Below are positions 5,012 through 34,802 of a DNA stretch of 64,000 nt, piece after piece. The translations under genes and the position numbers were made by a program. The notes beneath the pieces were generated by a model. The model was not told the DNA's origin. It saw nothing but the letters and a program-made list of their open reading frames with translations, and did no database searches. Source of the stretch: an uncultured Arcobacteraceae bacterium. GTDB lineage: Bacteria > Campylobacterota > Campylobacteria > Campylobacterales > Arcobacteraceae. Within the stretch, counting starts at the first letter, position 1, and each line of letters starts with the position of its first letter. The stretch lies in contig CAXHZO010000001.1 in assembly GCA_964022095.1 (NCBI GenBank), positions 1 through 64,000 on the forward strand, read 5' to 3'.

Positions 5012-5617
5012 CTATGGATTAAAAACCGAATTTGATATTTGATTTTTTTTGCAATAGTATGAAAAAAATGCAAATATAGAAGTATGGAATATCACTAAAA
5101 GAATAATTGCTAAAATAGGTACACCAAAAAACTGGTAATCCCAACTATATGTCCAAACACCTAAGTTAATAGTAATAATTTCTCCCCATGTAGGGAAAAT
5201 AGCTGAAAGCATAGCTACAAAAAAAAGTTTTCTTTTTAAAGAATTAATTTTCTTAACTTTTAAAATATCCTCTTCTAATCTGTAAAAAAATGAAAAAGTC
5301 AATGCCCAGGCAAAAGGTAACCAATAAGGGAACTCTCTATTATTTGATAACTCATGATATTCCCAATAGTTATTATATACACCCCAAATTTCTGCTAGTG
5401 TGCCTAAAACAGCACTAATTAAAGTTCCTAATATAAGAATAGTAAGTTTACGAGAAGAAGGATTACGTTTACTTTCTTGGTAGATTCTAAAAACAAGTAA
5501 AAAAGAAAGAAGGATTGCTAAAAATAAGTCATAAGGATATAGAAACCCAATAACAGTTCCAGCTATTAATAAAGATAAAAAAGCTCTTGAATATCTTAAG
5601 ATTAAAGTTTTATTCAT
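5012..5617 (-). CDS. hypothetical polytopic membrane protein
   Basis: 201-aa hydrophobic ORF with an internally repeated E..G.W.Y motif (EIWGVYNNYWEY / EIITINLGVWTY). Confidence 0.7.
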   Translation of the reverse strand: MNKTLILRYSRAFLSLLIAGTVIGFLYPYDLFLAILLSFLLVFRIYQESKRNPSSRKLTILILGTLISAVLGTLAEIWGVYNNYWEYHELSNNREFPYWLPFAWALTFSFFYRLEEDILKVKKINSLKRKLFFVAMLSAIFPTWGEIITINLGVWTYSWDYQFFGVPILAIILLVIFHTSIFAFFSYYCKKNQISNSVFNP

Positions 5618-21871: not shown

Positions 21872-22474
21872 TTATTTGTAAAAACTATCAATCTTCGCTT
21901 TATGATTAGCTGCCCAATCTTTGAAGCTCATAGCTTGATCTTTTTGCACATTTGATTTTGTTTGAGTATAAACTTCTTCTGCTTTTTCTTTTGGAATAAC
22001 AGCAACGCCCTCTTCGTCAGCTACTATTATATCTCCTGGGTTTACAGAGATTCCACCGGCAGTAATAGGGATATTTACTGGAACAGCATTTTTCTTTCCA
22101 CCTGGCATAGGTAATACACCTCTTCCAAAAATCGCTACTTCGTTTTCTCTTATTTCACCTATATCTCTAACCAAACCATCAATTACAAAACCCTTGATTC
22201 CTCTTTTTTTAGCGATTAAAGCTACATTTCCGCCAATTACAGCATAATCCATAGTATTTGATTGAGCTACAATTATTGAGCCAACAGGAGCTTCATAAAT
22301 TGCTCTATGTAAACTAAGATTCTCACCACCAACCATTTCAACTGTAAAAGCAGGTCCTGAGATTCTAGGAATTCCTTGCCATAGTTCTTTGATACCTGCA
22401 TCCATAAAATTTTCTCTTTTTATTGGGCCTGCATAATCACAAGGGGAAAAATCAGCAAACTTTTCATAATCCAT
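21872..22474 (-). CDS. RraA/HMG aldolase-family protein
   Basis: GPAFTV, VIDGLVRD, VNPGDIIVADEEGVAVIP. Confidence 0.88.
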   Translation of the reverse strand: MDYEKFADFSPCDYAGPIKRENFMDAGIKELWQGIPRISGPAFTVEMVGGENLSLHRAIYEAPVGSIIVAQSNTMDYAVIGGNVALIAKKRGIKGFVIDGLVRDIGEIRENEVAIFGRGVLPMPGGKKNAVPVNIPITAGGISVNPGDIIVADEEGVAVIPKEKAEEVYTQTKSNVQKDQAMSFKDWAANHKAKIDSFYK

Positions 22475-22499
22475 TTTTATCCTTTAAATTTATAATATT

Positions 22500-22590
22500 T
22501 TACATACCTATTATAGTAGCAACTATTTTCCTATTTCCACCATGATCTCTATGTTCACCTAAATATATTCCTTCCATATTCAAGGTTTAT
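22500..22590 (-). pseudogene. yjbQ: 3' fragment of yjbQ (UPF0047)
   Basis: EGIYLGEHRDHGGNRKIVATIIGM* resembles the YjbQ C-terminus (W-Q-G-I-Y-L-x-E-H-R...R-K-I-V-A-T). Confidence 0.75.
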
Positions 22591-22677
22591 ATTTACAAGT
22601 TAAAAAAATTTTACTATAAATTATTAATAAAATACCTTATTTAGTAAAGAACTTTTCTATTGTCATTTTTCATCCTA

Positions 22678-23850
22678 TTAAGATTTTATTCTTGTTAAAG
22701 TTTTAGCATAACGAATAGACCATATAATAAACATAACTATCCAAAGCCAAGAACTTAAGTGTAAAATTCCCATATAAACGGTTGAATCATTTAAAAATAA
22801 GACAGAAGCAATTGTTCTACTAATAACAATCACTTGAGTTAATACAAATATAAATTTTGTGATTTTATCTGCAACAATTTGTTGAGCAGGAACTGCATGA
22901 CCCATAACAACCCTACTTCCAAAACCTATTAATAAAGTAGCCACAAATCCTAAAGCAAAAATATGAAGTGATAACTTTAATGAATATACTTCATAAATAG
23001 ACTCTAAAAATAAAGCTATAAAGCCTACTTCAAGCCAAATAAATGATACCACTAAAATAGAGATAATAGCAGGTGTTTTTTTATAAATATTTAGATTCAT
23101 CACCATATATCCAAAAAATAACATAGCAACAAAAGATATTAATTTTAATATCAATAATAATTCAAACTCTAAAGTAATACCTAAACCTAAAAATAGCATA
23201 ACAGAAATCTCTCTTATATATTTAGGCTTTTCCCACGCCATAACTTTCATATACGAACCATAAAAGGCAGGAATCATTCTTTGGGCAACTAAAAATACTA
23301 AACTTATTAAATATCCAAAAAATATTAATAAAGATAGATTTGTTTGAAAAAGCACTTCAAGAAGCAAAAATATAGCTCCAAATAAAAATACTAAATTTAA
23401 AAATATGCTATCTTTCTTGTAAGAAGCTTTACCCTCTTTTATAGTTTCATAAAAAACTTTAACAAAATATAACATTACAAAAGAAACTAAAATTTTTCCT
23501 AAAAAACTAGCTCCCAGAAAAGATAAAACTATACCCCCTTGAAAAATAAACCAAGGTTTTAAATATTTTTCTTTTGATATAACTTTTGCCCCATTAAATT
23601 TAGGTATCACAGTAATTAAAAAACCTAAAAATGCATTAGTAAAAACTGCATAATTTAATCCAAACCCATGAATCAAAGAAAATTCAAGGGGTGATTTTCC
23701 AAGAAAGGATACAAAAGTTAATACCATTACTACTATTGCAAAAAATATTGAACTCGTAAAATATAATTGATGTGATTGTGAAGTAAATCTATCCCACCAT
23801 ATCTCTTCTATTTTTGGTGTAAAACCATTTTGATTTGTTGAAAACTGCAT
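22678..23850 (-). CDS. nnrS: NnrS-family protein
   Basis: About 12 TM segments, GFLITVIPKF, RMIPAF, LHIFALG, SRVVMGH; adjacent to nor genes. Confidence 0.8.
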   Translation of the reverse strand: MQFSTNQNGFTPKIEEIWWDRFTSQSHQLYFTSSIFFAIVVMVLTFVSFLGKSPLEFSLIHGFGLNYAVFTNAFLGFLITVIPKFNGAKVISKEKYLKPWFIFQGGIVLSFLGASFLGKILVSFVMLYFVKVFYETIKEGKASYKKDSIFLNLVFLFGAIFLLLEVLFQTNLSLLIFFGYLISLVFLVAQRMIPAFYGSYMKVMAWEKPKYIREISVMLFLGLGITLEFELLLILKLISFVAMLFFGYMVMNLNIYKKTPAIISILVVSFIWLEVGFIALFLESIYEVYSLKLSLHIFALGFVATLLIGFGSRVVMGHAVPAQQIVADKITKFIFVLTQVIVISRTIASVLFLNDSTVYMGILHLSSWLWIVMFIIWSIRYAKTLTRIKS

Positions 23851-23858
23851 ATTTTTCC

Positions 23859-24278
23859 TTAAATATAAAACATAAATTGTGATAAAAATACTATAATTAT
23901 CACTAATATAAATGGTAGTATATGACTTTTAAAAACAAAAGGCTGTATTCCAAAAAAAACCTGAAGAATACCTCTAACACCTAACCAAAGTCCTAAAATA
24001 CCTTTAATTGACAATAGTATTTGAAAATTTGAAAATCCATTTTCCCCTACACTTCCAAAACTATTCTGGAATAAAAGAATACCACTAATCACTGCAATAA
24101 CTAGAGCTTTAGGGACTAAAACTCTTGTAAATTCTTTAAAATAAGATCTAACTTCATCATACTTTTCTTTTGATAATGTTTTTTGCATACGCATTAAAAT
24201 GAGATTATCCGTAAATAAGAAACCCCCATAAATTAATACTGAGAAAATATGAAGAATTTTTATAATTAAATATGTCAA
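23859..24278 (-). CDS. 4-TM membrane protein (CopD-like/hypothetical)
   Basis: IKILHIFSVLIYGG and hydrophobicity pattern. Confidence 0.55.
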   Translation of the reverse strand: MTYLIIKILHIFSVLIYGGFLFTDNLILMRMQKTLSKEKYDEVRSYFKEFTRVLVPKALVIAVISGILLFQNSFGSVGENGFSNFQILLSIKGILGLWLGVRGILQVFFGIQPFVFKSHILPFILVIIIVFLSQFMFYI

Positions 24279-24320
24279 AAAATTTCCTTTCTAAATTTAT
24301 CAATAATTTGCATTAATACT

Positions 24321-24911
24321 TTAAAACATGTCTTCATTTTTTTTAGAACCTTTTTTTGGGTTTATTATAAATTTATTAAATTTTACTCCATCTGGATAGT
24401 GTCTATGTTTAGAAATATTATTAACTAAAAGTGCAATAATAAATAGGATAAAAGCCCCTGTTGCCACAGGATATAAAACATAAAGAAAACCCAGTTCATG
24501 TATATTTTCACTTCCTAATACTGCTATTAATGCCGTTGCTCCTCCTGGAGGATGTAAAGTTAAAGTAAGTTGCATAACTAGAATGGAAGTTGCTACTGCA
24601 AATGCAGAGCACAATAAGAGATTATCAAAAAAAAGTTTATAAGAAATAATTCCTACTATAGCAGATAAAATATGTCCGCCTATAAGATTTCTAGGTTGTG
24701 CAAGAGGTGAGTGTATTGCTCCATATACTAAAACAGCACTTGCTCCAAAAGAACCAATCACTAAACCTAAATCTTCATCTCCTAAAACTCCTCTATGAAA
24801 TAAAGCTATGCTTAATATTCCTACGAAAGAACCTATCCAAGACCAAATCATATTTGATCTTTCAAGAGGCTCTGTATTTATTTTTTTAAATTGTTTAAAA
24901 AATCTTTTCAA
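24321..24911 (-). CDS. HPP-family membrane protein
   Basis: SFGASAVLVYG, SPLAQPRNLIGGH, TLHPPGGATAL. Confidence 0.92.
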   Translation of the reverse strand: MKRFFKQFKKINTEPLERSNMIWSWIGSFVGILSIALFHRGVLGDEDLGLVIGSFGASAVLVYGAIHSPLAQPRNLIGGHILSAIVGIISYKLFFDNLLLCSAFAVATSILVMQLTLTLHPPGGATALIAVLGSENIHELGFLYVLYPVATGAFILFIIALLVNNISKHRHYPDGVKFNKFIINPKKGSKKNEDMF

Positions 24912-24914
24912 AAT

Positions 24915-25217
24915 TTAGCCTGCTAGTTTTGCTTTAACTTCATCTGATGCCATACTAATATTCCAAGCTGGTTCCCAAACTAAATCTACACTTGCGATTT
25001 GAACCTTTGGTAATTCTCTTAAAACTGCCTCTTCAACCCATTGAATAATCATTTGGTGAAGAGGACAAGCTTTTGTACTAAGTGTCATTGTAACAGTTAC
25101 TTTCATGTTTTTATCACAAAAAGCATCATAAATAAGTCCCATCTCTACAAGATTAAAACCAACTTCTGGATCATTTACAGTTGATACTGCTTTAAAAATT
25201 TCTTCTTTACTATACAT
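24915..25217 (-). CDS. DUF59 metal-sulfur cluster assembly protein
   Basis: DPEVGFNLVEMGLIY, MTLSTKACPLH, LVWEPAW. Confidence 0.88.
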   Translation of the reverse strand: MYSKEEIFKAVSTVNDPEVGFNLVEMGLIYDAFCDKNMKVTVTMTLSTKACPLHQMIIQWVEEAVLRELPKVQIASVDLVWEPAWNISMASDEVKAKLAG

Positions 25218-26450
25218 TTATTTAAACCTTATCATATATAAAATATCTTTTAACAAAAAAATTGCACCAATACTTAATAAACTAATACCACTTTTAAAGA
25301 TAGAATCAACACTCAATAATATGCCAATTGCTGAAATCATAACGCCCAATGTTGAAAAAATAAATTGCATATTTGCACTTTTTACTGGAACCATATCTGA
25401 AAGCATAGGTACTTTTTTCTTTCCAACAAAAGGAGAAAATTTTTCAAACCATACTAAAAAAGGTACTATTTTATACATATGTCCTGTAATCACAAAAGTG
25501 ATAAAACCAAAAATACCAAGCCATGATAAAGTTAATAATAAATTGTGATTTGGATTAAAAATATAAATTATTCCCATAATAATTGAAATCAATAGGCAAA
25601 GATATGAAAAAAACATACTTTTAAAATAAATATCAACTTCTAATCTAACTCTAGTCTTATAAATTATGAATATTTGGAAAAAGTATAAAATCAAAGCAAT
25701 AAAACTTAAAATATAGCCCGAAAACTCCATAAATTTTACATTTATTAAAGAAGATAAAACTACAAGTAAAATCCCAAAAGACAAAATCACTAAGGCACTT
25801 TTTACAAATATCCAAGAGAAACTATGGCTAAGCCAAAACATAGGTAATAAAACCAAAGACATACCCATAATTGTAATACCAACATAACCAACTAGTACCA
25901 AAAAAACATGTGCTTTAAGAAGCTTATAGATATCTACATCTAAAACTCCACTATAACCTAAAGCTAGAATTATTCCAATAATCAAACCAAAAAGTAAAAA
26001 TATATTTGCAATTAAAACTGTAGTAATTATAAAGTTTAATTTTTTAACCTTTAAAATAGTTAAAAAAGTTTCAAATAAAAATATTGAAAAAGCTACAAAT
26101 GCTATTACTCCACCATAAGGCAAAAGTATAGGGAAATAGTAAAAACCCGTTCCCATTAAAACAGTTCCTATAAATAGTAATGGATAAATTATATAATACA
26201 AATCAACAGCAAAATGCCCTACTTCAAGTACTACTGGGACTAATTGAGCCATAGCCCCAAAGATTATCATCATCACAAAACCAAGTAAAAAAATATGAAC
26301 CCAAGCTAGAGTGCTACTATTTAAACTGTGTGCAGTTGATATATCCATTCCAAATAGTAAAAATGTACTAAATGTTAAAACTAATATCCCAATAATAAAA
26401 TATGGAGATATAAGTTTAAATGGTGGAGCAAACTGCTGAGAGATATTCAT
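25218..26450 (-). CDS. 12-TM His-containing membrane protein
   Basis: APPF, WVHIFLLGF, GAMAQLVPV, AHVFL, LLPMFWLSH, YKIVPFLVW. Confidence 0.7.
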   Translation of the reverse strand: MNISQQFAPPFKLISPYFIIGILVLTFSTFLLFGMDISTAHSLNSSTLAWVHIFLLGFVMMIIFGAMAQLVPVVLEVGHFAVDLYYIIYPLLFIGTVLMGTGFYYFPILLPYGGVIAFVAFSIFLFETFLTILKVKKLNFIITTVLIANIFLLFGLIIGIILALGYSGVLDVDIYKLLKAHVFLVLVGYVGITIMGMSLVLLPMFWLSHSFSWIFVKSALVILSFGILLVVLSSLINVKFMEFSGYILSFIALILYFFQIFIIYKTRVRLEVDIYFKSMFFSYLCLLISIIMGIIYIFNPNHNLLLTLSWLGIFGFITFVITGHMYKIVPFLVWFEKFSPFVGKKKVPMLSDMVPVKSANMQFIFSTLGVMISAIGILLSVDSIFKSGISLLSIGAIFLLKDILYMIRFK

Positions 26451-26453
26451 TTT

Positions 26454-26777
26454 TTATCCGTGACAACTATTTTGTGTAAAATCCGTTGAATTTAAAGCAT
26501 CAACTTTTTTTGTAAATACAACTTTGATTTTTCCATCATCTGTATCTTCTTCTAGAAAATTAAAATCTTCTTCAATTTTTGGGAATAATCCCCCTGGAGA
26601 TTTATGATTTATCATAACTAATTGAGAATTTTCATCCAACAATTGTAAACCAGCCATAGCATTTACCATTGGATCTGGTGGCCCACACATACTTGTGTCA
26701 AATTGATAAGTAGTTAAACCATCTTTAATCTCTTTGAAAAAATCAACTGTAGCACCTAAAACTTCTATTTTTTCCAT
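26454..26777 (-). CDS. DUF2249/TusA-like small protein
   Basis: AAGGA SD before ATG 26777; FDTSMCGPPDPMVNAM...INHKSPGGLFP. Confidence 0.6.
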   Translation of the reverse strand: MEKIEVLGATVDFFKEIKDGLTTYQFDTSMCGPPDPMVNAMAGLQLLDENSQLVMINHKSPGGLFPKIEEDFNFLEEDTDDGKIKVVFTKKVDALNSTDFTQNSCHG

Positions 26778-26824
26778 GATAATTCCTTTTTTTGTAACTA
26801 TAGCAATACTGATAATGTTTCTCA

Positions 26825-26838
26825 TTGACATAAGTCAA
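26825..26838. promoter_or_regulatory. Crp/Fnr (Nss-type) box in the divergent nor promoter
   Basis: TTGACATAAGTCAA; -10-like hexamers 22 nt to the left (TATAGT, minus strand) and 21 nt to the right (TATAAT). Confidence 0.7.
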
Positions 26839-26864
26839 TAAAATAAACGAATTTTTAAATATAA

Positions 26865-26882
26865 TTCTACTTATAAGTATAA
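26865..26882. promoter_or_regulatory. palindromic operator upstream of norE
   Basis: TTCTACTTATAAGTATAA; related copies at 27735 and 27782. Confidence 0.65.
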
Positions 26883-26902
26883 TTTTATAAAAAGGTGAAT
26901 AT

Positions 26903-27484
26903 TTGGAGAGTTCAAAGAATAACTATCCTCCAGGAGATTTTGGAATTTGGTTAGTAATATATATAGAATTAATTACTTTTGGAGCCTTTTTTATTGGCTA
27001 TGCATTTACTAGACGATTAGATATAGAACTTTTTAATAATTCACAACAACTATTAAATAAAGAATTTGGTTTTGTAAACACACTGACACTTATAAGCAGC
27101 AGTTTTTTTGTTGTTAAAGCAATTGAATTGATTAAATCAGATGAAACTTTTGAAAAAATTTCTAAAGCTTCAAATTACCTTTTAGTATCAATTTCTCTAG
27201 GTGGATTATTTTTGATATTAAAGTGTATCGAGTTTTATCAAAAGTTTAGCGAAGGTATAAATCTAAGCACTAACAAATTTTTTATGTTTTATTTTATCAT
27301 GACCTTTTTCCATTTTTTACATGTTGTTTTAGGAGTTTTTATTCTATTAGTCATGTATAAAAATACTAAATTAGGCATTTATACGAAAACAAATCATAAA
27401 GGGTTAGAGACAGGTGCTTCATACTGGCATATGGTTGATTTGGTTTGGATAATTTTATTTCCACTAATTTATATTATGAGGTAA
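26903..27484 (+). CDS. norE: NorE, cytochrome c oxidase subunit III-like
   Basis: NTLTLISSS, FHFLHVVLG, YWHMVDLVWIILFP. Confidence 0.85.
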   Translation: MESSKNNYPPGDFGIWLVIYIELITFGAFFIGYAFTRRLDIELFNNSQQLLNKEFGFVNTLTLISSSFFVVKAIELIKSDETFEKISKASNYLLVSISLGGLFLILKCIEFYQKFSEGINLSTNKFFMFYFIMTFFHFLHVVLGVFILLVMYKNTKLGIYTKTNHKGLETGASYWHMVDLVWIILFPLIYIMR

Positions 27485-27487
27485 ATT

Positions 27488-27730
27488 ATGAAATTAAAAA
27501 CAATTTGGATATTTCTTATTTTTTTTACAACACTTACTTTTATATTAGGGAAAATTGAACTTTCACCTTATTTTTTCATTGCTTTAATTCTTTTAACTAC
27601 ATTTGTAAAAGGACAGTTAGTAATTGATTTTTTCATGGGTTTAAAAACGGTAAGTTTAAAGTACAGATTAATTGTCAATTTATGGTTGTTTCTAGTAATT
27701 GTTTTAATAGGATTGGCTTTTTTGGCCTAA
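27488..27730 (+). CDS. norF: NorF, cytochrome c oxidase subunit IV-like
   Basis: 3 TM segments, KGQLVIDFFMGLK; lies between norE and norC. Confidence 0.7.
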   Translation: MKLKTIWIFLIFFTTLTFILGKIELSPYFFIALILLTTFVKGQLVIDFFMGLKTVSLKYRLIVNLWLFLVIVLIGLAFLA

Positions 27731-27734
27731 TATA

Positions 27735-27799
27735 TTCTATCTAAAGGTAGAATTAATAAAATATCAGTTATTATTCCAAAATACTACTTATAAGTAGAA
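27735..27799. promoter_or_regulatory. two operator palindromes upstream of norC
   Basis: TTCTATCTAAAGGTAGAA (27735-27752) and TACTACTTATAAGTAGAA (27782-27799). Confidence 0.65.
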
Positions 27800-27816
27800 T
27801 TATAAAGGAGAAGTTT

Positions 27817-28263
27817 ATGGAAGAAAGAATTACCAAAAGTATGGCTAGAAACATCTATTTAGGTGGAAGCCTTTTTGCTATTTTAGTATTTGCCGGATTG
27901 ACACTAGACACAGTACAACAAGTTCCTAAATTATCTAATGCACAGAATATTACAAAATCTGTAGCACATGGAAAACATTTATGGGAAGTTAACAACTGTG
28001 TTGGTTGCCATACTATTATGGGAGAAGGAGCATATTACGCACCTGAATTAGGAAATGTATTTAATAGAAGAGGAGCATCAGATGAAGCAACTTTTAAAGC
28101 ATATATGCAAGGATGGATGGCTGCACAACCACTAGATGCACCAGACAGAAGAAAAATGCCACAGTTTAATTTAAGCGAGACAGAAGTAAATGATCTTGCA
28201 AACTTCCTGATTTGGACATCAAAAATTGATGACAATGAATGGCCACCAAATATTGAAGGATAG
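27817..28263 (+). CDS. norC: nitric oxide reductase subunit C
   Basis: TKSMARNIY, CVGCHTIMGEGAYYAPEL, RRKMPQFNL, WPPNIEG. Confidence 0.97.
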   Translation: MEERITKSMARNIYLGGSLFAILVFAGLTLDTVQQVPKLSNAQNITKSVAHGKHLWEVNNCVGCHTIMGEGAYYAPELGNVFNRRGASDEATFKAYMQGWMAAQPLDAPDRRKMPQFNLSETEVNDLANFLIWTSKIDDNEWPPNIEG

Positions 28264-29643
<1,380 letters not shown>

Positions 29644-29645
29644 TC

Positions 29646-31415
29646 ATGTTAGAGTGGGAAGAAGATATAGGAAAAGCTTGGGATAAATTCTTAAATAAAA
29701 AAACAACTATTTCTAATAAAGAAGCAAAGGTTTCTTTTTCTGAACACTCTAAATCTTTTAAAGTCTTTTATCATCTTCTAGGAGGTGATAAAGGTAAAGA
29801 GTTAAAAATTACTGACAAAAGAAATATTAAAAAATCAAGAACTTTTTTACAAAAACTTTCAGGATATGGAAAATCACTTTTCTTAACTTGGCAAGATAAT
29901 AATGCAGTTTATCTTCCTGCTTCACTTGATATTTTACCAACAATAGAAGAGAATAAAATGCTGTATTTTTGGCTAATTGCAATGATTACAAAAGTAAATG
30001 TAAATCAGTCAAATATAATAGAAGAAAATCAAAATGCAGCTAAGTATCTTTGTGATAGATATATTGGCTTTAGATATTTTTACAATCAATCAAGCCAATA
30101 TCTTATCTCAAGGATACCTGAACTCTCTTACATAAATCAACTTGATTATAAAAAAACACAAGAAGAATATCCCTTTATAATGTGGATATATCCATCAGTA
30201 AATAAAAAAAATAGTCTTAATACTCAAGATGAGGAAGAGAATCCAGATAAAAGAAAAGATGAAAAAGTTGAATCTTTAAATATGAAAAAGAAAGCCAATC
30301 AAATTGATGATAAAAAAGAGACTGATGGATTTATGGCTTTTATTCCAGAAGGTTTGATGAGTATATTAGAACAAGTGAATGTTGATCGTGCTGAAGATGA
30401 TAGTTTTGATGAAGATGCACTTTATAATGCAGAAGATTTAGATGAGATTACTTTAGGACAAAAAAAAGCAAATCTAAAAGCAAGAGTTAAAATGGATTTA
30501 GATTTAACTCCTGATATGTCTGAAGAGTATCCTATTGGCAAAGGATATTATATTGATGAATGGGATTATACAAAGAAAAAGTATTTAGAAAGTTTTGTTC
30601 GGATAAGACCTATTATTACATCAAATATTGAAGCAATTTCACTACCAAAACGATTAGAGAAAACAGTTAAAAAAATTCAAACAGAACTTGATTTACTTGA
30701 GATTGATAGACTTAAAAGTAACAGACTTCCCTATGGACATGAAATTTGTCTTGATACTTGGATAGATTATAAAGGTCATCAAAACAAATCACTTCATCAT
30801 CAAAAATTTTATGAAAACTTTGAAAAGAAAACAAGAGATATGGCTACACTTATTCTTGCAGATATTTCACTTTCAACAGAAGCTGGAATCACTGAAGAAA
30901 TTCGGGTAATTGATATGATAAAAGATGGGCTAATGGTCTTCTCTCAAGCTTTAGAAAAACTACAGGATAAATTTGCAATCTACGCATTCTCCTCAAATAA
31001 AAATACAAATGTAAGATTTCATATAATAAAAAATTTTAAAGAAAAATACTCTGATTTAATACGAGGAAGAATTGACTCTATAAAACCAGGCTACTACACA
31101 AGATTAGGTGCAGCAATTAGAGAGTCTACAAAGATTTTAGATAAACAACAAAGTCAAAATAAACTTTTACTTATCATTAGTGATGGAAAACCAAATGACA
31201 TAGATAGATACGATGGAAGATATGGCATTGAAGATACAAAAAAAGCTATTGAAGAAGTAAAACAAAAAGGTATTACTCCTTTTTGCATAACAATTGATAT
31301 TGAAGCAAAAGATTATCTCTCATATTTATTTGGTAAAAATGGCTATGCAGTTGTAAGAGACAGTAAAAAACTTCCAAAAGTAATACCTGAAGTATATATA
31401 AATTTAACAAAATAA
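29646..31415 (+). CDS. norD: NorD, VWA-domain activation protein
   Basis: EWDY, LADISLST, PGYYTRLGAAIR, ISDGKPNDIDRYDGRYGIEDT. Confidence 0.93.
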   Translation: MLEWEEDIGKAWDKFLNKKTTISNKEAKVSFSEHSKSFKVFYHLLGGDKGKELKITDKRNIKKSRTFLQKLSGYGKSLFLTWQDNNAVYLPASLDILPTIEENKMLYFWLIAMITKVNVNQSNIIEENQNAAKYLCDRYIGFRYFYNQSSQYLISRIPELSYINQLDYKKTQEEYPFIMWIYPSVNKKNSLNTQDEEENPDKRKDEKVESLNMKKKANQIDDKKETDGFMAFIPEGLMSILEQVNVDRAEDDSFDEDALYNAEDLDEITLGQKKANLKARVKMDLDLTPDMSEEYPIGKGYYIDEWDYTKKKYLESFVRIRPIITSNIEAISLPKRLEKTVKKIQTELDLLEIDRLKSNRLPYGHEICLDTWIDYKGHQNKSLHHQKFYENFEKKTRDMATLILADISLSTEAGITEEIRVIDMIKDGLMVFSQALEKLQDKFAIYAFSSNKNTNVRFHIIKNFKEKYSDLIRGRIDSIKPGYYTRLGAAIRESTKILDKQQSQNKLLLIISDGKPNDIDRYDGRYGIEDTKKAIEEVKQKGITPFCITIDIEAKDYLSYLFGKNGYAVVRDSKKLPKVIPEVYINLTK

Positions 31416-31430
31416 AAAAGGAAATTGATA

Positions 31431-32231
31431 ATGTCAAATACGTATTATTTATCTCAATCAAACGAAGTTGAACTTTTTGAAGCTGCTGCTTCTATGAATT
31501 TACCTATTCTTATAAAAGGTCCTACAGGATGTGGAAAAACTAGATTTATTGAACATATGGGTGAAAAACTAAATAGAGAAGTTTATACAGTAGTTTGTCA
31601 CGATGATTTAAGTGCTGCTGATTTAGTAGGACGTCATTTAATCGATGAAAATGGAACTTATTGGCAAGATGGACCACTTACAAAAGCTGTGAGAAATGGT
31701 GGAATTTGTTATTTAGACGAAATTATAGAAGCAAGAAAAGATACCACAGTTGTTCTACATTCGCTAGCAGACTATAGAAGAGTACTGCCAATTGATAGAA
31801 CAGGAGAAGCGATAGAAGCACATCCAGACTTTATGTTAGTTGTTTCATATAACCCAGGTTATCAAAATGTTTTAAAAGGCATGAAGCCAAGTACAAAACA
31901 AAGATTTATTTCTCTTTCATTTAACTATCCAGAAGCAAAAGTTGAAAAAGAAATAATTATTAAAGAGAGTGAAGTTGATGAAAGTATTGCACAAAAACTT
32001 GTAGAAATTGCAGGAGAAATAAGAGAACTTTCTGATACAGATATTCAAGAAGCAGTTTCAACTAGGTTATTAATATATGCAGCAAAGCTTATCAAAAAAG
32101 GTTTTAATCCATATAACGCTTGTATTCACTCAATAGTTGAATCATTAAGTGATGAAGATGATGTTTTAGAAGTTTTAGAAAAATTGATTACACTTCATTT
32201 TCTAAAAAAAGAGTTTGATGAAAGTCAATAA
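31431..32231 (+). CDS. norQ: NorQ AAA+ ATPase
   Basis: KGPTGCGKTRF, CHDDL, YLDEIIEARKD, SYNPGYQ, KPSTKQRF. Confidence 0.95.
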   Translation: MSNTYYLSQSNEVELFEAAASMNLPILIKGPTGCGKTRFIEHMGEKLNREVYTVVCHDDLSAADLVGRHLIDENGTYWQDGPLTKAVRNGGICYLDEIIEARKDTTVVLHSLADYRRVLPIDRTGEAIEAHPDFMLVVSYNPGYQNVLKGMKPSTKQRFISLSFNYPEAKVEKEIIIKESEVDESIAQKLVEIAGEIRELSDTDIQEAVSTRLLIYAAKLIKKGFNPYNACIHSIVESLSDEDDVLEVLEKLITLHFLKKEFDESQ

Positions 32232-32286
32232 AAAACTATAGTTTTTAAATTACAATAATAAAATAGTTCACAATCATGGGGTAGTT

Positions 32287-32471
32287 ATGTTTTTTAATTT
32301 GTTTAAGAAAAAAGAATGGAAAAATGAAAAAAACCAATTTATGTTTGTAAACATTGTAAACTAACTTGTAAGTCATGTGATACAATTTATTGTTTTACTT
32401 GTTATGTAAATGATGCTAATCCATGTCCTAGATGTGGAAAAAGAAATATTGATTATAAAAAAACATTGTAG
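32287..32471 (+). pseudogene. frameshifted Cys-rich microprotein (4x CxxC)
   Basis: MFFNLFKKKEWKNEK, A7 tract at 32327-32333, then in another frame PIYVCKHCKLTCKSCDTIYCFTCYVNDANPCPRCGKRNIDYKKTL*. Confidence 0.6.
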
Positions 32472-32514
32472 TTTAACTAATTATTAACTAAAATATAAAT
32501 AAAAAGAGCTGATT

Positions 32515-32925
32515 GTGAAACTAAATACTACAACTGAATATGCACTTAGGATTTTGATATTTATGGCGAAAAATCAAAATGAATTATTTCATACAAAAGA
32601 AATATCTGAAACTTTAAATATATCTTATAAATATATGACTAAAATAATTACACTATTATCTAATAATGAACTTATAATTTCAAAAAAAGGTAAAAATGGG
32701 GGTATTACACTCAAAAAAGACAGTGATGAAATATCAATAAAAGACATTTTGATAATTATGAATGATTTAGATGATGATAAATGTATATTGGGTCTTGGTT
32801 TATGTAGAGAAAAGAACAAATGTGCTATGCATGAAACTTGGATGGAATCAAAAAACTCTATAAGTCATACTTTTTCCAAAACTACTATAAAAGAGTTAGC
32901 TTTAAATCCTAATTCTTTAATTTAA
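32515..32925 (+). CDS. Rrf2-family transcriptional regulator with three C-terminal Cys
   Basis: EYALRIL, SKKGKNGG, CILGLGLCREKNKCAMH. Confidence 0.9.
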   Translation: MKLNTTTEYALRILIFMAKNQNELFHTKEISETLNISYKYMTKIITLLSNNELIISKKGKNGGITLKKDSDEISIKDILIIMNDLDDDKCILGLGLCREKNKCAMHETWMESKNSISHTFSKTTIKELALNPNSLI

Positions 32926-33039
32926 CTCACTAAGTCTTGATGTTTTATAAATAACATTATAAAAAAACTTATCTAAAGATGAATGCACATAAACGTAGAA
33001 TTGAATAACTTATGATTTAGTATTGATCAAAAATACTCC

Positions 33040-33334
33040 GCTGAAAGAACAAATTGAAATACTTGATATTCAAATGAGAAATACTGAAGTAAAAAGTACA
33101 CTCAAAAAGAGTGAAGCTGGAGAGTTCAAACGTCTAAAACGTAAAATAAAATACTTAAACGAAAAGGACGACAGCTTAAAGAATACAAAGGCATAGTTAA
33201 ATACAAAAGCAATCAAATATATAAAATTTTAAAACTCAATCGTATCACTGAGTAAAAGCTACTTGATATTATAAAAAAAGTAGATAATCAACTAAATGAA
33301 CTTGTAAAATTAATATTTGTTTTTGCTAGAAATA
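33040..33334 (+). mobile_element. degenerate IS3-family transposase remnant
   Basis: Fragments KSTLKKSEAGEFKRLKRKIKYL (orfA-like) and KILKLNR...IIKKVDNQLNELVKLIF (orfB-like), broken by stops and frameshifts; boundaries approximate. Confidence 0.55.
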
Positions 33335-33526
33335 ATCATAGCCATCTTAAGTATGTTCAAAATAGTGTTTGTTTTATACTATATCATTTACAAAGTTTTC
33401 CATATCACTTCTAAGTAAACTATCACAATTTTCATTTAGAGTAATACTTTCACTTGTGTGCTTTAAAAGCAGATTTAAAGTATCTGCTTTTACTTTTAGT
33501 CAAATTTCTTTTGGGAAAACTTGCAA
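33335..33526 (-). pseudogene. yjbQ: 5' fragment of yjbQ (UPF0047)
   Basis: AAGG SD + [50 protein letters not shown] / YFEHT*DGYD, matching the YjbQ HTSASLTINEN...YxHxxEG motifs. Confidence 0.75.
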
Positions 33527-33536
33527 AATTCACCTT

Positions 33537-34802
33537 TTAGTATTTATTCACTTCAAAGATTCTATCTAAACTTGCTATCGCTAGATATTTGTCAAAGTAT
33601 GCTTTATTATATCCTTGTTGTGCTTGAGTTAATAAATAGTTTGCATCAGTTAAATCAGTAGTTGTAGCTAAACCTTCATCAAATCTATTTTTTACTATTT
33701 CATAGTTTTCTTTTGATTGAAGAAGTGAAAGTTTTGAAGTCTCTAAATTATCAATTGCAACTTCAAGATTTGTTTTTGCATTTTCATATTGAAGTTTAAT
33801 ATCTAACTTTGTTTTTTCAAGCTGATTTGCTGCATTTTTGTAATCAATTTTTGCATTTTGAACTTGTGCACTATCATAACCACCACTATATAAATTCCAA
33901 GATGCAGTTACATTTGCTACATTTTGATTATCAACATTTGGTATTGCATCATACTGTTTTAATGAAAATGTATCATAGTATTTATTATGAGATGCACTTA
34001 CATCAATACTTGGATAAAAATTAGATTTAGATGCTTTTTTCTGTTGTTTATATGATTTTAAGGCCATAACTAAAGCTTGAATTTCACTTCTTTTTTCAAG
34101 TTTTGATTCATCATATGTTTTAATATTTAAACTTTTTTCATCTAAACTTTCAATTGTTTCATTTGATAAATCAACACCACCTAAGATGTTTGATAACTCA
34201 TAACTTGCAACTTTTAAATTACCCTTTGCTTGAACAACATTTTGTTTTGCATTTGACATATTTACTTGAACTTGAAGTAAATCATTTTTTGCAATTAAAC
34301 CTTGGTCATATCTATTTTTTGAATCTTCATATTGCTCTTTAAATAATGCATATGCACTATTGTAAGTTTTTAGTGAATTTTGAGCATTTAAATAGTTTAT
34401 ATATGCACTTTTTACACTTAATACAATATCTTGTTTTGTTGCAATTAAAGAGTATTTTGATGATTTCGATAAATATTTTGAAGCATTTTTATTTGCTAAA
34501 TCTTTAAAACCATTAAAAAGATTATATGAAACAGTTGCGCTTAGTGCTGTTGTTTCTGATTGATTATTATTAAAAACTGCTTCATCTGTATTATTATATG
34601 CATATCCCAAATTTAACTTTGGTAAATATGTTGATTTACTAGCTTTTAGATCTTGAACACTTTTCATATATTGATATTTAGATGATTTAATATCTAAATT
34701 TTTATTAAGTGCTATATCTACTGCTTCATCTAAATTTAATGCACTAGCATTCACTATAAATAGTGAACTAAGTGCTAATGATAATATTGAAATTTTTCTC
34801 AT
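33537..34802 (-). CDS. TolC-family outer membrane efflux protein
   Basis: LNLDEAVDIAL, SYNLFNGF, WNLYSGG repeats; RND operon context. Confidence 0.92.
   Translation of the reverse strand: MRKISILSLALSSLFIVNASALNLDEAVDIALNKNLDIKSSKYQYMKSVQDLKASKSTYLPKLNLGYAYNNTDEAVFNNNQSETTALSATVSYNLFNGFKDLANKNASKYLSKSSKYSLIATKQDIVLSVKSAYINYLNAQNSLKTYNSAYALFKEQYEDSKNRYDQGLIAKNDLLQVQVNMSNAKQNVVQAKGNLKVASYELSNILGGVDLSNETIESLDEKSLNIKTYDESKLEKRSEIQALVMALKSYKQQKKASKSNFYPSIDVSASHNKYYDTFSLKQYDAIPNVDNQNVANVTASWNLYSGGYDSAQVQNAKIDYKNAANQLEKTKLDIKLQYENAKTNLEVAIDNLETSKLSLLQSKENYEIVKNRFDEGLATTTDLTDANYLLTQAQQGYNKAYFDKYLAIASLDRIFEVNKY

Follow-up and report, generated by a model that had tools for sequence, protein, structure and literature searches.

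The yjbQ locus and its inserted block

We analysed a stretch of 64,000 nt (hereafter the window; contig CAXHZO010000001.1, positions 1 to 64,000, assembly GCA_964022095.1) from the 2.57-Mb genome of an uncultured Arcobacteraceae bacterium (G000), in which a block of nitric oxide (NO) reductase and NO-stress genes separates two pieces of a single yjbQ gene. A preliminary description of this DNA had proposed an ancestral tolC-yjbQ-rraA locus, interrupted long ago by an insertion associated with an insertion sequence (IS). The features of the locus are the following:

21872..22474, minus strand: RraA-like/aldolase gene, the downstream flank; below the NCBIfam RraA cut-off
22500..22605, minus strand: yjbQ 3' piece, gene nt 314-420, with two 1-nt deletions
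22613..22638, minus strand: possible relic of a cassette arm (right attachment site, attR); weak, position-conditioned p 0.003-0.007
22639..32957, both strands: foreign nor/NO-stress block, one unit, matched at about 97% identity by contigs from runs X8 and X14, with the gene order of genomes G147 and G129
22639..22670, minus strand: start of the gene that comes next in the donor, cut short and lacking 30 nt; the donor DNA has its left edge here
22678..26831, minus strand: genes for DUF2249-like, 410-aa membrane, SufT-like, HPP and DUF2269-like proteins, and nnrS (Pfam)
26903..27730, plus strand: norE-like (COX3) and norF-like (COX4_pro) genes (Pfam)
27817..32231, plus strand: norC, norB, norD and norQ (cytochrome c-dependent NO reductase, cNOR, and activators), open frames
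32515..32925, plus strand: Rrf2-family regulator (Pfam); below the NsrR and IscR cut-offs
32958..33065, no strand: spacer; likeness to the 5' part of IS3 not significant
33066..33342, plus strand: internal fragment of an IS3-family element, orfA codons 49-91 and orfB codons 3-45, with internal deletions and no terminal repeats
33332..33526, minus strand: yjbQ 5' piece, gene nt 1 to about 251-261, with three in-frame stops and about 22 codons deleted
33537..34802, minus strand: tolC-like outer membrane efflux gene, the upstream flank

Both yjbQ pieces lie on one strand and in the correct order, as the preliminary description had it, with the nnrS-norEFCBDQ-rrf2 block intact between them. The 5' piece starts 11 nt from the tolC stop and matches PF01894 (YjbQ/UPF0047) at 38.4 bits, above the cut-off, over 33335-33496 (minus). 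Its first part, 33526-33488, corresponds to gene nt 1-39 (blastn), gene nt 97-256 are matched by nhmmer (E 2e-27), and intact yjbQ genes of the family align with it over nt 1-39 and 97-261. The 3' piece is 79% identical to the intact yjbQ of G003, with two 1-nt gaps. An nhmmer profile built from six intact yjbQ genes matches these two pieces and nothing else in the G000 genome, and a second Pfam row is below the cut-off; both pieces thus derive from one orthologue and a confusion of different paralogues is excluded. Gene nt about 262-313 are absent between them, so that the halves cannot rejoin. Misassembly was also ruled out, because contigs of other runs span the junctions, the left one in X4, X6 and X7, and the right one in a single contig of X6 only.

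The gene list proposed earlier for the space between the halves is borne out by Pfam and by NorB (see below). For the downstream neighbour, said to be rraA, membership of the RraA-like/aldolase family holds, while the assignment to RraA itself falls below the NCBIfam cut-off. Interruption of a tolC-yjbQ-rraA locus by foreign nor DNA is supported by the congener G001 (a complete genome), in which the flanks are present, yjbQ pieces lie in the same positions and NorB is absent.

yjbQ cassettes in related genomes

Among the 184 Arcobacteraceae genomes surveyed, YjbQ is matched in 32, with a full-length copy in 28. Eight of the 32 (G000, G001, G004, G025, G136, G145, G162 and G172) carry pieces comprising only the 3' part of the gene, as does G410 from another family. 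The relatives hold units composed of a yjbQ 3' half, cargo genes and an arm of about 90 nt with a core, which occur singly, in tandem and at ectopic positions. Five downstream halves (three in G004 and one each in G025 and G162) start at gene nt 258-260, at codon 86/87, and the conserved arm directly precedes each of them. In total, 11 arms were found in 8 genomes; those of G162 (E 6e-8) and G145 (E 0.008) were recovered, at the predicted cargo ends, by models not containing them. The arm-bounded units measure about 1.4-5.3 kb and carry genes for signalling, for sulfur and redox functions, for transport and for toxin-antitoxin systems. The cargo genes that were scanned include no recombinase, though immediately outside the G136 unit there is a gene for a small resolvase.

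The array of G004 occupies the same tolC/rraA locus as the window, in the order tolC, yjbQ, three cargo blocks each ending in a 3' half, and rraA, which lies 24 kb further along. With only 77-89% similarity among them, its halves do not represent recent duplications. Units of 3' half, cargo and arm away from yjbQ are found in G004, G136 and G145, and G113, G129 and G132 have arms that lack a half. The ectopic half of G136 clusters with the G004 halves (support 0.98, 160-nt tree) and not with the gene of G136 itself, which indicates that the half travels with its cargo. The yjbQ gene of G001 is split by a ParE/antidote pair, and in G162, a member of another genus, the same pair stands as cargo between yjbQ and the arm; the two copies share their orientation and a collinear, closely matching stretch of about 540 nt that includes upstream DNA.

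Among 20 loci with a full-length yjbQ, tolC precedes the gene in 10 and rraA follows it in 5. The preliminary description had expected an intact yjbQ between tolC and rraA, free of nor genes, in sister genomes. An intact empty tolC-yjbQ-rraA site was seen neither among these 20 loci nor in the two genomes of the genus, and NorB is absent from all of the 31 yjbQ-region loci. In Escherichia coli, yjbQ is matched in 5,421 of 5,426 genomes and at 5,422 places in all, hence there is no sign of duplicated halves.

Several details of these units were noted in passing. The best-preserved array is that of G004 (L028 7398-18932, L117 1316; G004:C2), where each cassette ends in the arm and a yjbQ 3' half; its cargo encodes SpoIIE/GAF signalling proteins, a histidine kinase and response regulator with sulfide:quinone reductase-like and DsrE proteins, and a glutathione synthetase, and its leading yjbQ has one stop. 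Cold-shock, methyltransferase and TPR-methyltransferase genes follow an ectopic yjbQ 3' half in both G136 (L086 4240-6979) and G172 (L208 7322-10049), two genera, in opposite orientation. An AraC-LysE pair stands directly after the intact yjbQ of G197 (L081 10158-11534) and beside an ectopic arm in G132 (L109 17819-19960), which has an IS256-like transposase nearby, and in G129 (L113 67-2040). Between serS and the half-less arm of G113 (L111 1981-8290) there are FRG-, HNH- and nucleotidyltransferase-like genes that look defence-like by eye. G410 (L211 9873-10045) has a GC-richer yjbQ 3' half that starts just ahead of the core and precedes ABC and efflux genes; no arm was found at this half. 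A repeat downstream of the ectopic arms is present in 45 of the 184 genomes in unrelated contexts; it is presumably an IS end, IS256-like, and was set aside.

Junctions of the window

In the full attR junctions (n=5), an imperfect inverted repeat with 5-8 of 11 matches surrounds a 6-bp spacer at gene nt 260-265; intact yjbQ genes have 3-5 of 11. The end of the window's 5' piece, at gene nt 251-261, meets this core spacer, and the piece is likely to be the host arm of the left attachment site (attL). At the other end, the 40 nt that separate the 3' piece from the donor DNA score as a proximal arm (p 0.003 against shuffles and p 0.004 against 6,707 AT-matched 40-mers; p 0.007 in a separate test of the proximal-arm score), and the 3' piece is likely to be the displaced 3' half of the host gene.

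The IS3 remnant does touch the 5' half, as stated earlier. It resembles an IS3 present in 7 copies in G001 and is the sole trace of this element in the G000 genome. The 11 nt at 33342-33332 fit both yjbQ and IS3, which suggests a deletion joint and not the end of an insertion. No terminal repeat was found in 22000-34000, extension of the IS3 5' part across 32930-33065 gave p 0.54, and neither a target duplication nor terminal repeats around the block were convincing. The features of a composite transposon are thus lacking, with no terminal repeats at the junctions, no two flanking copies and no target duplication. Since the IS3 piece is single-copy, internal (orfA codon 49 to orfB codon 45) and devoid of terminal repeats, the IS-driven insertion of the preliminary description finds no support. 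One of the G001 copies (L042) has a gene for a small resolvase on one side and an IS256-like fragment on the other; this resolvase also adjoins the ectopic unit of G136.

Origin and age of the block

NorB relatives of at least 74% are present in 31 of the 183 other family genomes. The nor block has the same order in G147 and G129, which belong to another genus, and is located there more than 100 kb from their yjbQ. Its accessory genes are 88-98% identical to those of G147/G129, while norCBDQ is 94-98% identical to G020 vs. 81-86% to G147/G129. This mosaic was not formed in the window, because runs X8 and X14, from two studies, hold the whole of 22639-32957 at about 97%. The same runs barely cover the yjbQ pieces, IS3 and the flanks, which fixes the edges of the block at 22639-32957; they also contain the 30 nt missing from the window at 22649. 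The flanking genes are 73-87% identical to the congener G001, and the synonymous distance (dS) of the block to its nearest relatives is 0.10-0.28 vs. 0.59-0.98 for four flanking genes against G001. By these comparisons the block is foreign and fairly recent.

At invariant yjbQ sites, 7 of 101 are changed in the window and 0 of 43 in G001 (about 1% in intact genes), and the two splits are therefore independent. The decay of the window copy, about 6% over background, is modest, placing the event after the divergence from the congener, and it is comparable in size to the synonymous distance, per lineage, that separates the block from its nearest relatives. To call the event old, as had been done, was an overstatement given a dS of 0.6-1.0 for the congeners' flanking genes.

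Proposed mechanism and competing explanations

The preliminary description overlooked a recurrent site-specific junction that cassettes use in relatives. It is probable that this cassette system opened the yjbQ site of the window, and we lean towards the explanation that the nor block itself was the cargo of a decayed site-specific cassette at codon 86/87. The anatomy of the units in relatives is that expected of a phage-type attachment site (attP) carrying the distal part of its target gene, which gives a rebuilt gene, a displaced half and stacking. A circular unit would carry an attP made up of the arm, the core and a 165-nt copy of the yjbQ 3' half, and would recombine with the core inside yjbQ. 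Integration would rebuild yjbQ at the left end and displace the host 3' half to the far side of the arm at the right end; arrays would arise from successive insertions. In the window, a later deletion may have removed the replacement half and joined the core to the interior of IS3 through the 11-nt microhomology, and most of the arm together with about 55 nt of the host half would also have been deleted. The enzyme would likely be a tyrosine recombinase of a lost or unsampled element.

A number of observations weigh against assigning the nor block to such a cassette. The window insert, at about 11 kb, exceeds the size of the arm-bounded units and has no replacement yjbQ half. The arm relic was missed by the nhmmer and cmsearch profile searches, its test was set post hoc, and chance matches are common in AT-rich DNA; a break within about 10 nt of the core would, by our estimate, occur by chance in about 7% of cases. 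A nor-carrying cassette with an arm was not seen elsewhere, the G147/G129 block not being at yjbQ. The cognate recombinase was not found, either in the window insert or in the scanned cargo: PF00589 has no match beside an arm or half in 10 genomes, with 8 follow-up regions, and PF07508 occurs in 10 of the 184 genomes, in none of them near yjbQ.

One possible alternative is that two steps were involved, in which an attachment-site cassette with other cargo first opened and killed yjbQ, and this cargo was afterwards replaced by the nor block, brought in via IS3 or by illegitimate recombination. The yjbQ pieces have, besides the 3 stops, about 4 indels in some 300 nt, the IS3 fragment is heavily deleted as well, the left edge interrupts the reading frame of the donor gene, and the 40 junction-proximal donor bases have no substitution relative to X8 and X14, all of which would suit a late entry into an already decaying locus. 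The decay estimate (7/101) and the dS of the block to its relatives nevertheless overlap, so that dating does not separate nor as cargo from later entry; nor was any trace of earlier cargo or of IS ends found, and we regard this sequence of events as possible but doubtful. An IS3-associated insertion into an intact yjbQ, as a composite transposon or adjacent to one and with no site-specific system involved, appears improbable. The remnant abuts the 5' piece, G001 has 7 copies of a related IS3, and IS630 and IS110 elements lie at the yjbQ loci of G162 and G001, but the junction is within orfB and not at an IS end, and the genome has one IS3 trace with none at the other end. Nor does this model account for the position of the break at the core of the cassette, for the possible arm relic or for the independent split of the congener's gene by known cassette cargo.

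It could further be supposed that yjbQ is dispensable in a plastic region, where non-specific recombination or transformation acted and the match to the cassette site is a coincidence. The evidence within the window is weak, yjbQ is found in just 32 of 184 family genomes and its neighbours are highly variable. However, the same small gene has been interrupted in two sister species by independent events of the same polarity, the G001 copy having no change at its 43 invariant sites, and 3'-only pieces recur in 8 of the 32 genomes; we therefore hold coincidence to be very improbable. A wider view than the decayed cassette would be that, in Arcobacteraceae, yjbQ anchors an array that captures genes in the manner of an integron, with recombinase-free cassettes moved between genera in trans and the nor block as one of them. 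Small metabolic and stress cassettes (1.4-5 kb, here 10 kb), each with an arm and a replacement 3' half, would then stack in a self-renewing yjbQ, a generalization that we consider rather unlikely.

Search for the recombinase

Inverted core repeats around a 6-8 bp spacer, together with a one-sided arm that contains repeats, are a feature of the attachment sites of tyrosine recombinases. The full yjbQ junctions have 5-8 of 11 matches and the conserved one-sided arm, which suggests an enzyme of this family, with no protein to assign to them. No large serine integrase was found near yjbQ, PF07508 being absent from G000, G001, G004, G025, G136 and G162. An integrase-family fragment 22 kb from the G172 yjbQ was not assigned, since it adjoins a tRNA-Asn gene. 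Arm, integrase and contig searches found no parent integrative and conjugative element (ICE) or integrative and mobilizable element (IME) for the units of G004, G025 and G162.

A scan of genome contigs with the arm pattern, incomplete in that it missed two known arms, returned 8 stretches, seven in Arcobacter/Campylobacterota and one in Mucilaginibacter that is likely a chance match. The pattern gave 0 matches in metagenome and viral contigs, and no convincing half-gene attachment piece was seen in phages or plasmids among the matches listed. With the arm model, 151 genomes yielded 9 strong matches, which are the training sequences only, and 25 weaker ones, of which the 7 inspected are noise.

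Relation to known elements

In e14, which inserts into icd, and SXT, which inserts into prfC, attP carries a substitute gene segment and insertion restores the gene. Both encode their own integrase, unlike the yjbQ cassettes with no recombinase. Closer in this respect are the cis-mobilizable elements (CIMEs), described in the available text as units that are bounded by attachment sites, lack integration genes of their own and accrete in tandem at a target (PMC5704250). The units of G004, G025 and G162 have putative attachment sites at both ends, contain no recombinase and stand in tandem at one target gene, as CIMEs do according to that text (PMC5704250). They differ from the CIMEs covered there in the target, which is the middle of yjbQ at codon 86/87, in the phylum and in the 165-nt replacement half, and no parent ICE/IME or integrase was found for them (PMC5704250). 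CIME-like accretion of an attachment-site-bounded cassette with a replacement 3' half is the likely best reading of the locus. The window insert, the most degraded example among the cassettes, has no integration or transfer genes inside, as in a CIME; its attL is cut at the core and its attR is at best a 26-nt relic, so the element represents a decayed remnant and not a CIME member.

The SE elements, as far as the accessible text describes them, have imperfect inverted repeats around a 6-bp spacer, are target-specific and are non-mobilizable, which recalls the units described here, but they need the core genes intA, tfp, intB and srap, none of which was seen here (PMC10214605). No tyrosine recombinase gene is present in the window insert or cargo, SE proteins not having been used as queries; the accessible parts of the SE paper mention neither yjbQ nor Campylobacter (PMC10214605). 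In Vibrio cholerae, yjbQ is described as a hotspot for genomic islands and defence genes, with three strains tabulated and with repeated yjbQ labels and the word 'recombinase' in the figure text, as far as the available portion of the article goes (PMC12082036). These islands share the target gene with our cassettes and, in that portion, are about 22-26 kb long and carry defence genes (PMC12082036). Exploitation of XerH/difH was rejected, the difH consensus (Table 2 of PMC2731167, the part consulted) being unlike the yjbQ core when compared by eye.

What is already known, then, is the mechanism class, i.e. integrase-less units bounded by attachment sites that accrete at a gene, and yjbQ as an island site. 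No description of the codon 86/87 site or of the cassette design was found in the literature, in which subscription papers and supplements were poorly covered. What had looked like a single case of a gene disrupted by an IS now points to an integration site that is used repeatedly in Arcobacteraceae and to a particular design of cassette there, and with the arm and core defined, a search for the missing recombinase has a concrete target. It also illustrates one route by which an NO reductase spreads between genera into a host in which other denitrification steps were not detected, which matters for the reading of norB as a denitrifier marker.

NO reductase and regulatory features of the block

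NorB matches the cNOR NorB of Pseudomonas aeruginosa (PDB 3O0R) over its full length (E 3e-197). With NorC, NorQ and NorD as neighbours the window genes are those of a cNOR, whose activity is predicted. The closest known system is cNOR (norCB) with norQD and norEF, and this is an ordinary enzyme in a mobile setting; the host differs in that no NirS, NirK or NosZ was detected in the G000 genome. Given that NapA, NrfA and NirB were found there, the cNOR more likely serves to detoxify NO, in a host that ammonifies nitrate. NorB and NrfA are both absent from G001 and both present in G000; nrfA may be a second gain or a loss.

A small open reading frame at about 32324-32469 (plus strand) encodes eight cysteines in four CxxC-like pairs and loses its frame in a run of A, where the X8 and X7 contigs have one extra A at 32326; it is largely deleted in G147 and G129. 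A 24-nt palindrome occurs at 26862-26885, ahead of the divergent DUF2249/norE promoter, and at 27779-27802, ahead of norC. These two copies are the best two matches in the G000 genome, and the palindrome, a candidate operator for the Rrf2 regulator, is kept in the nor blocks of G147, G129, G020, G142 and G019.

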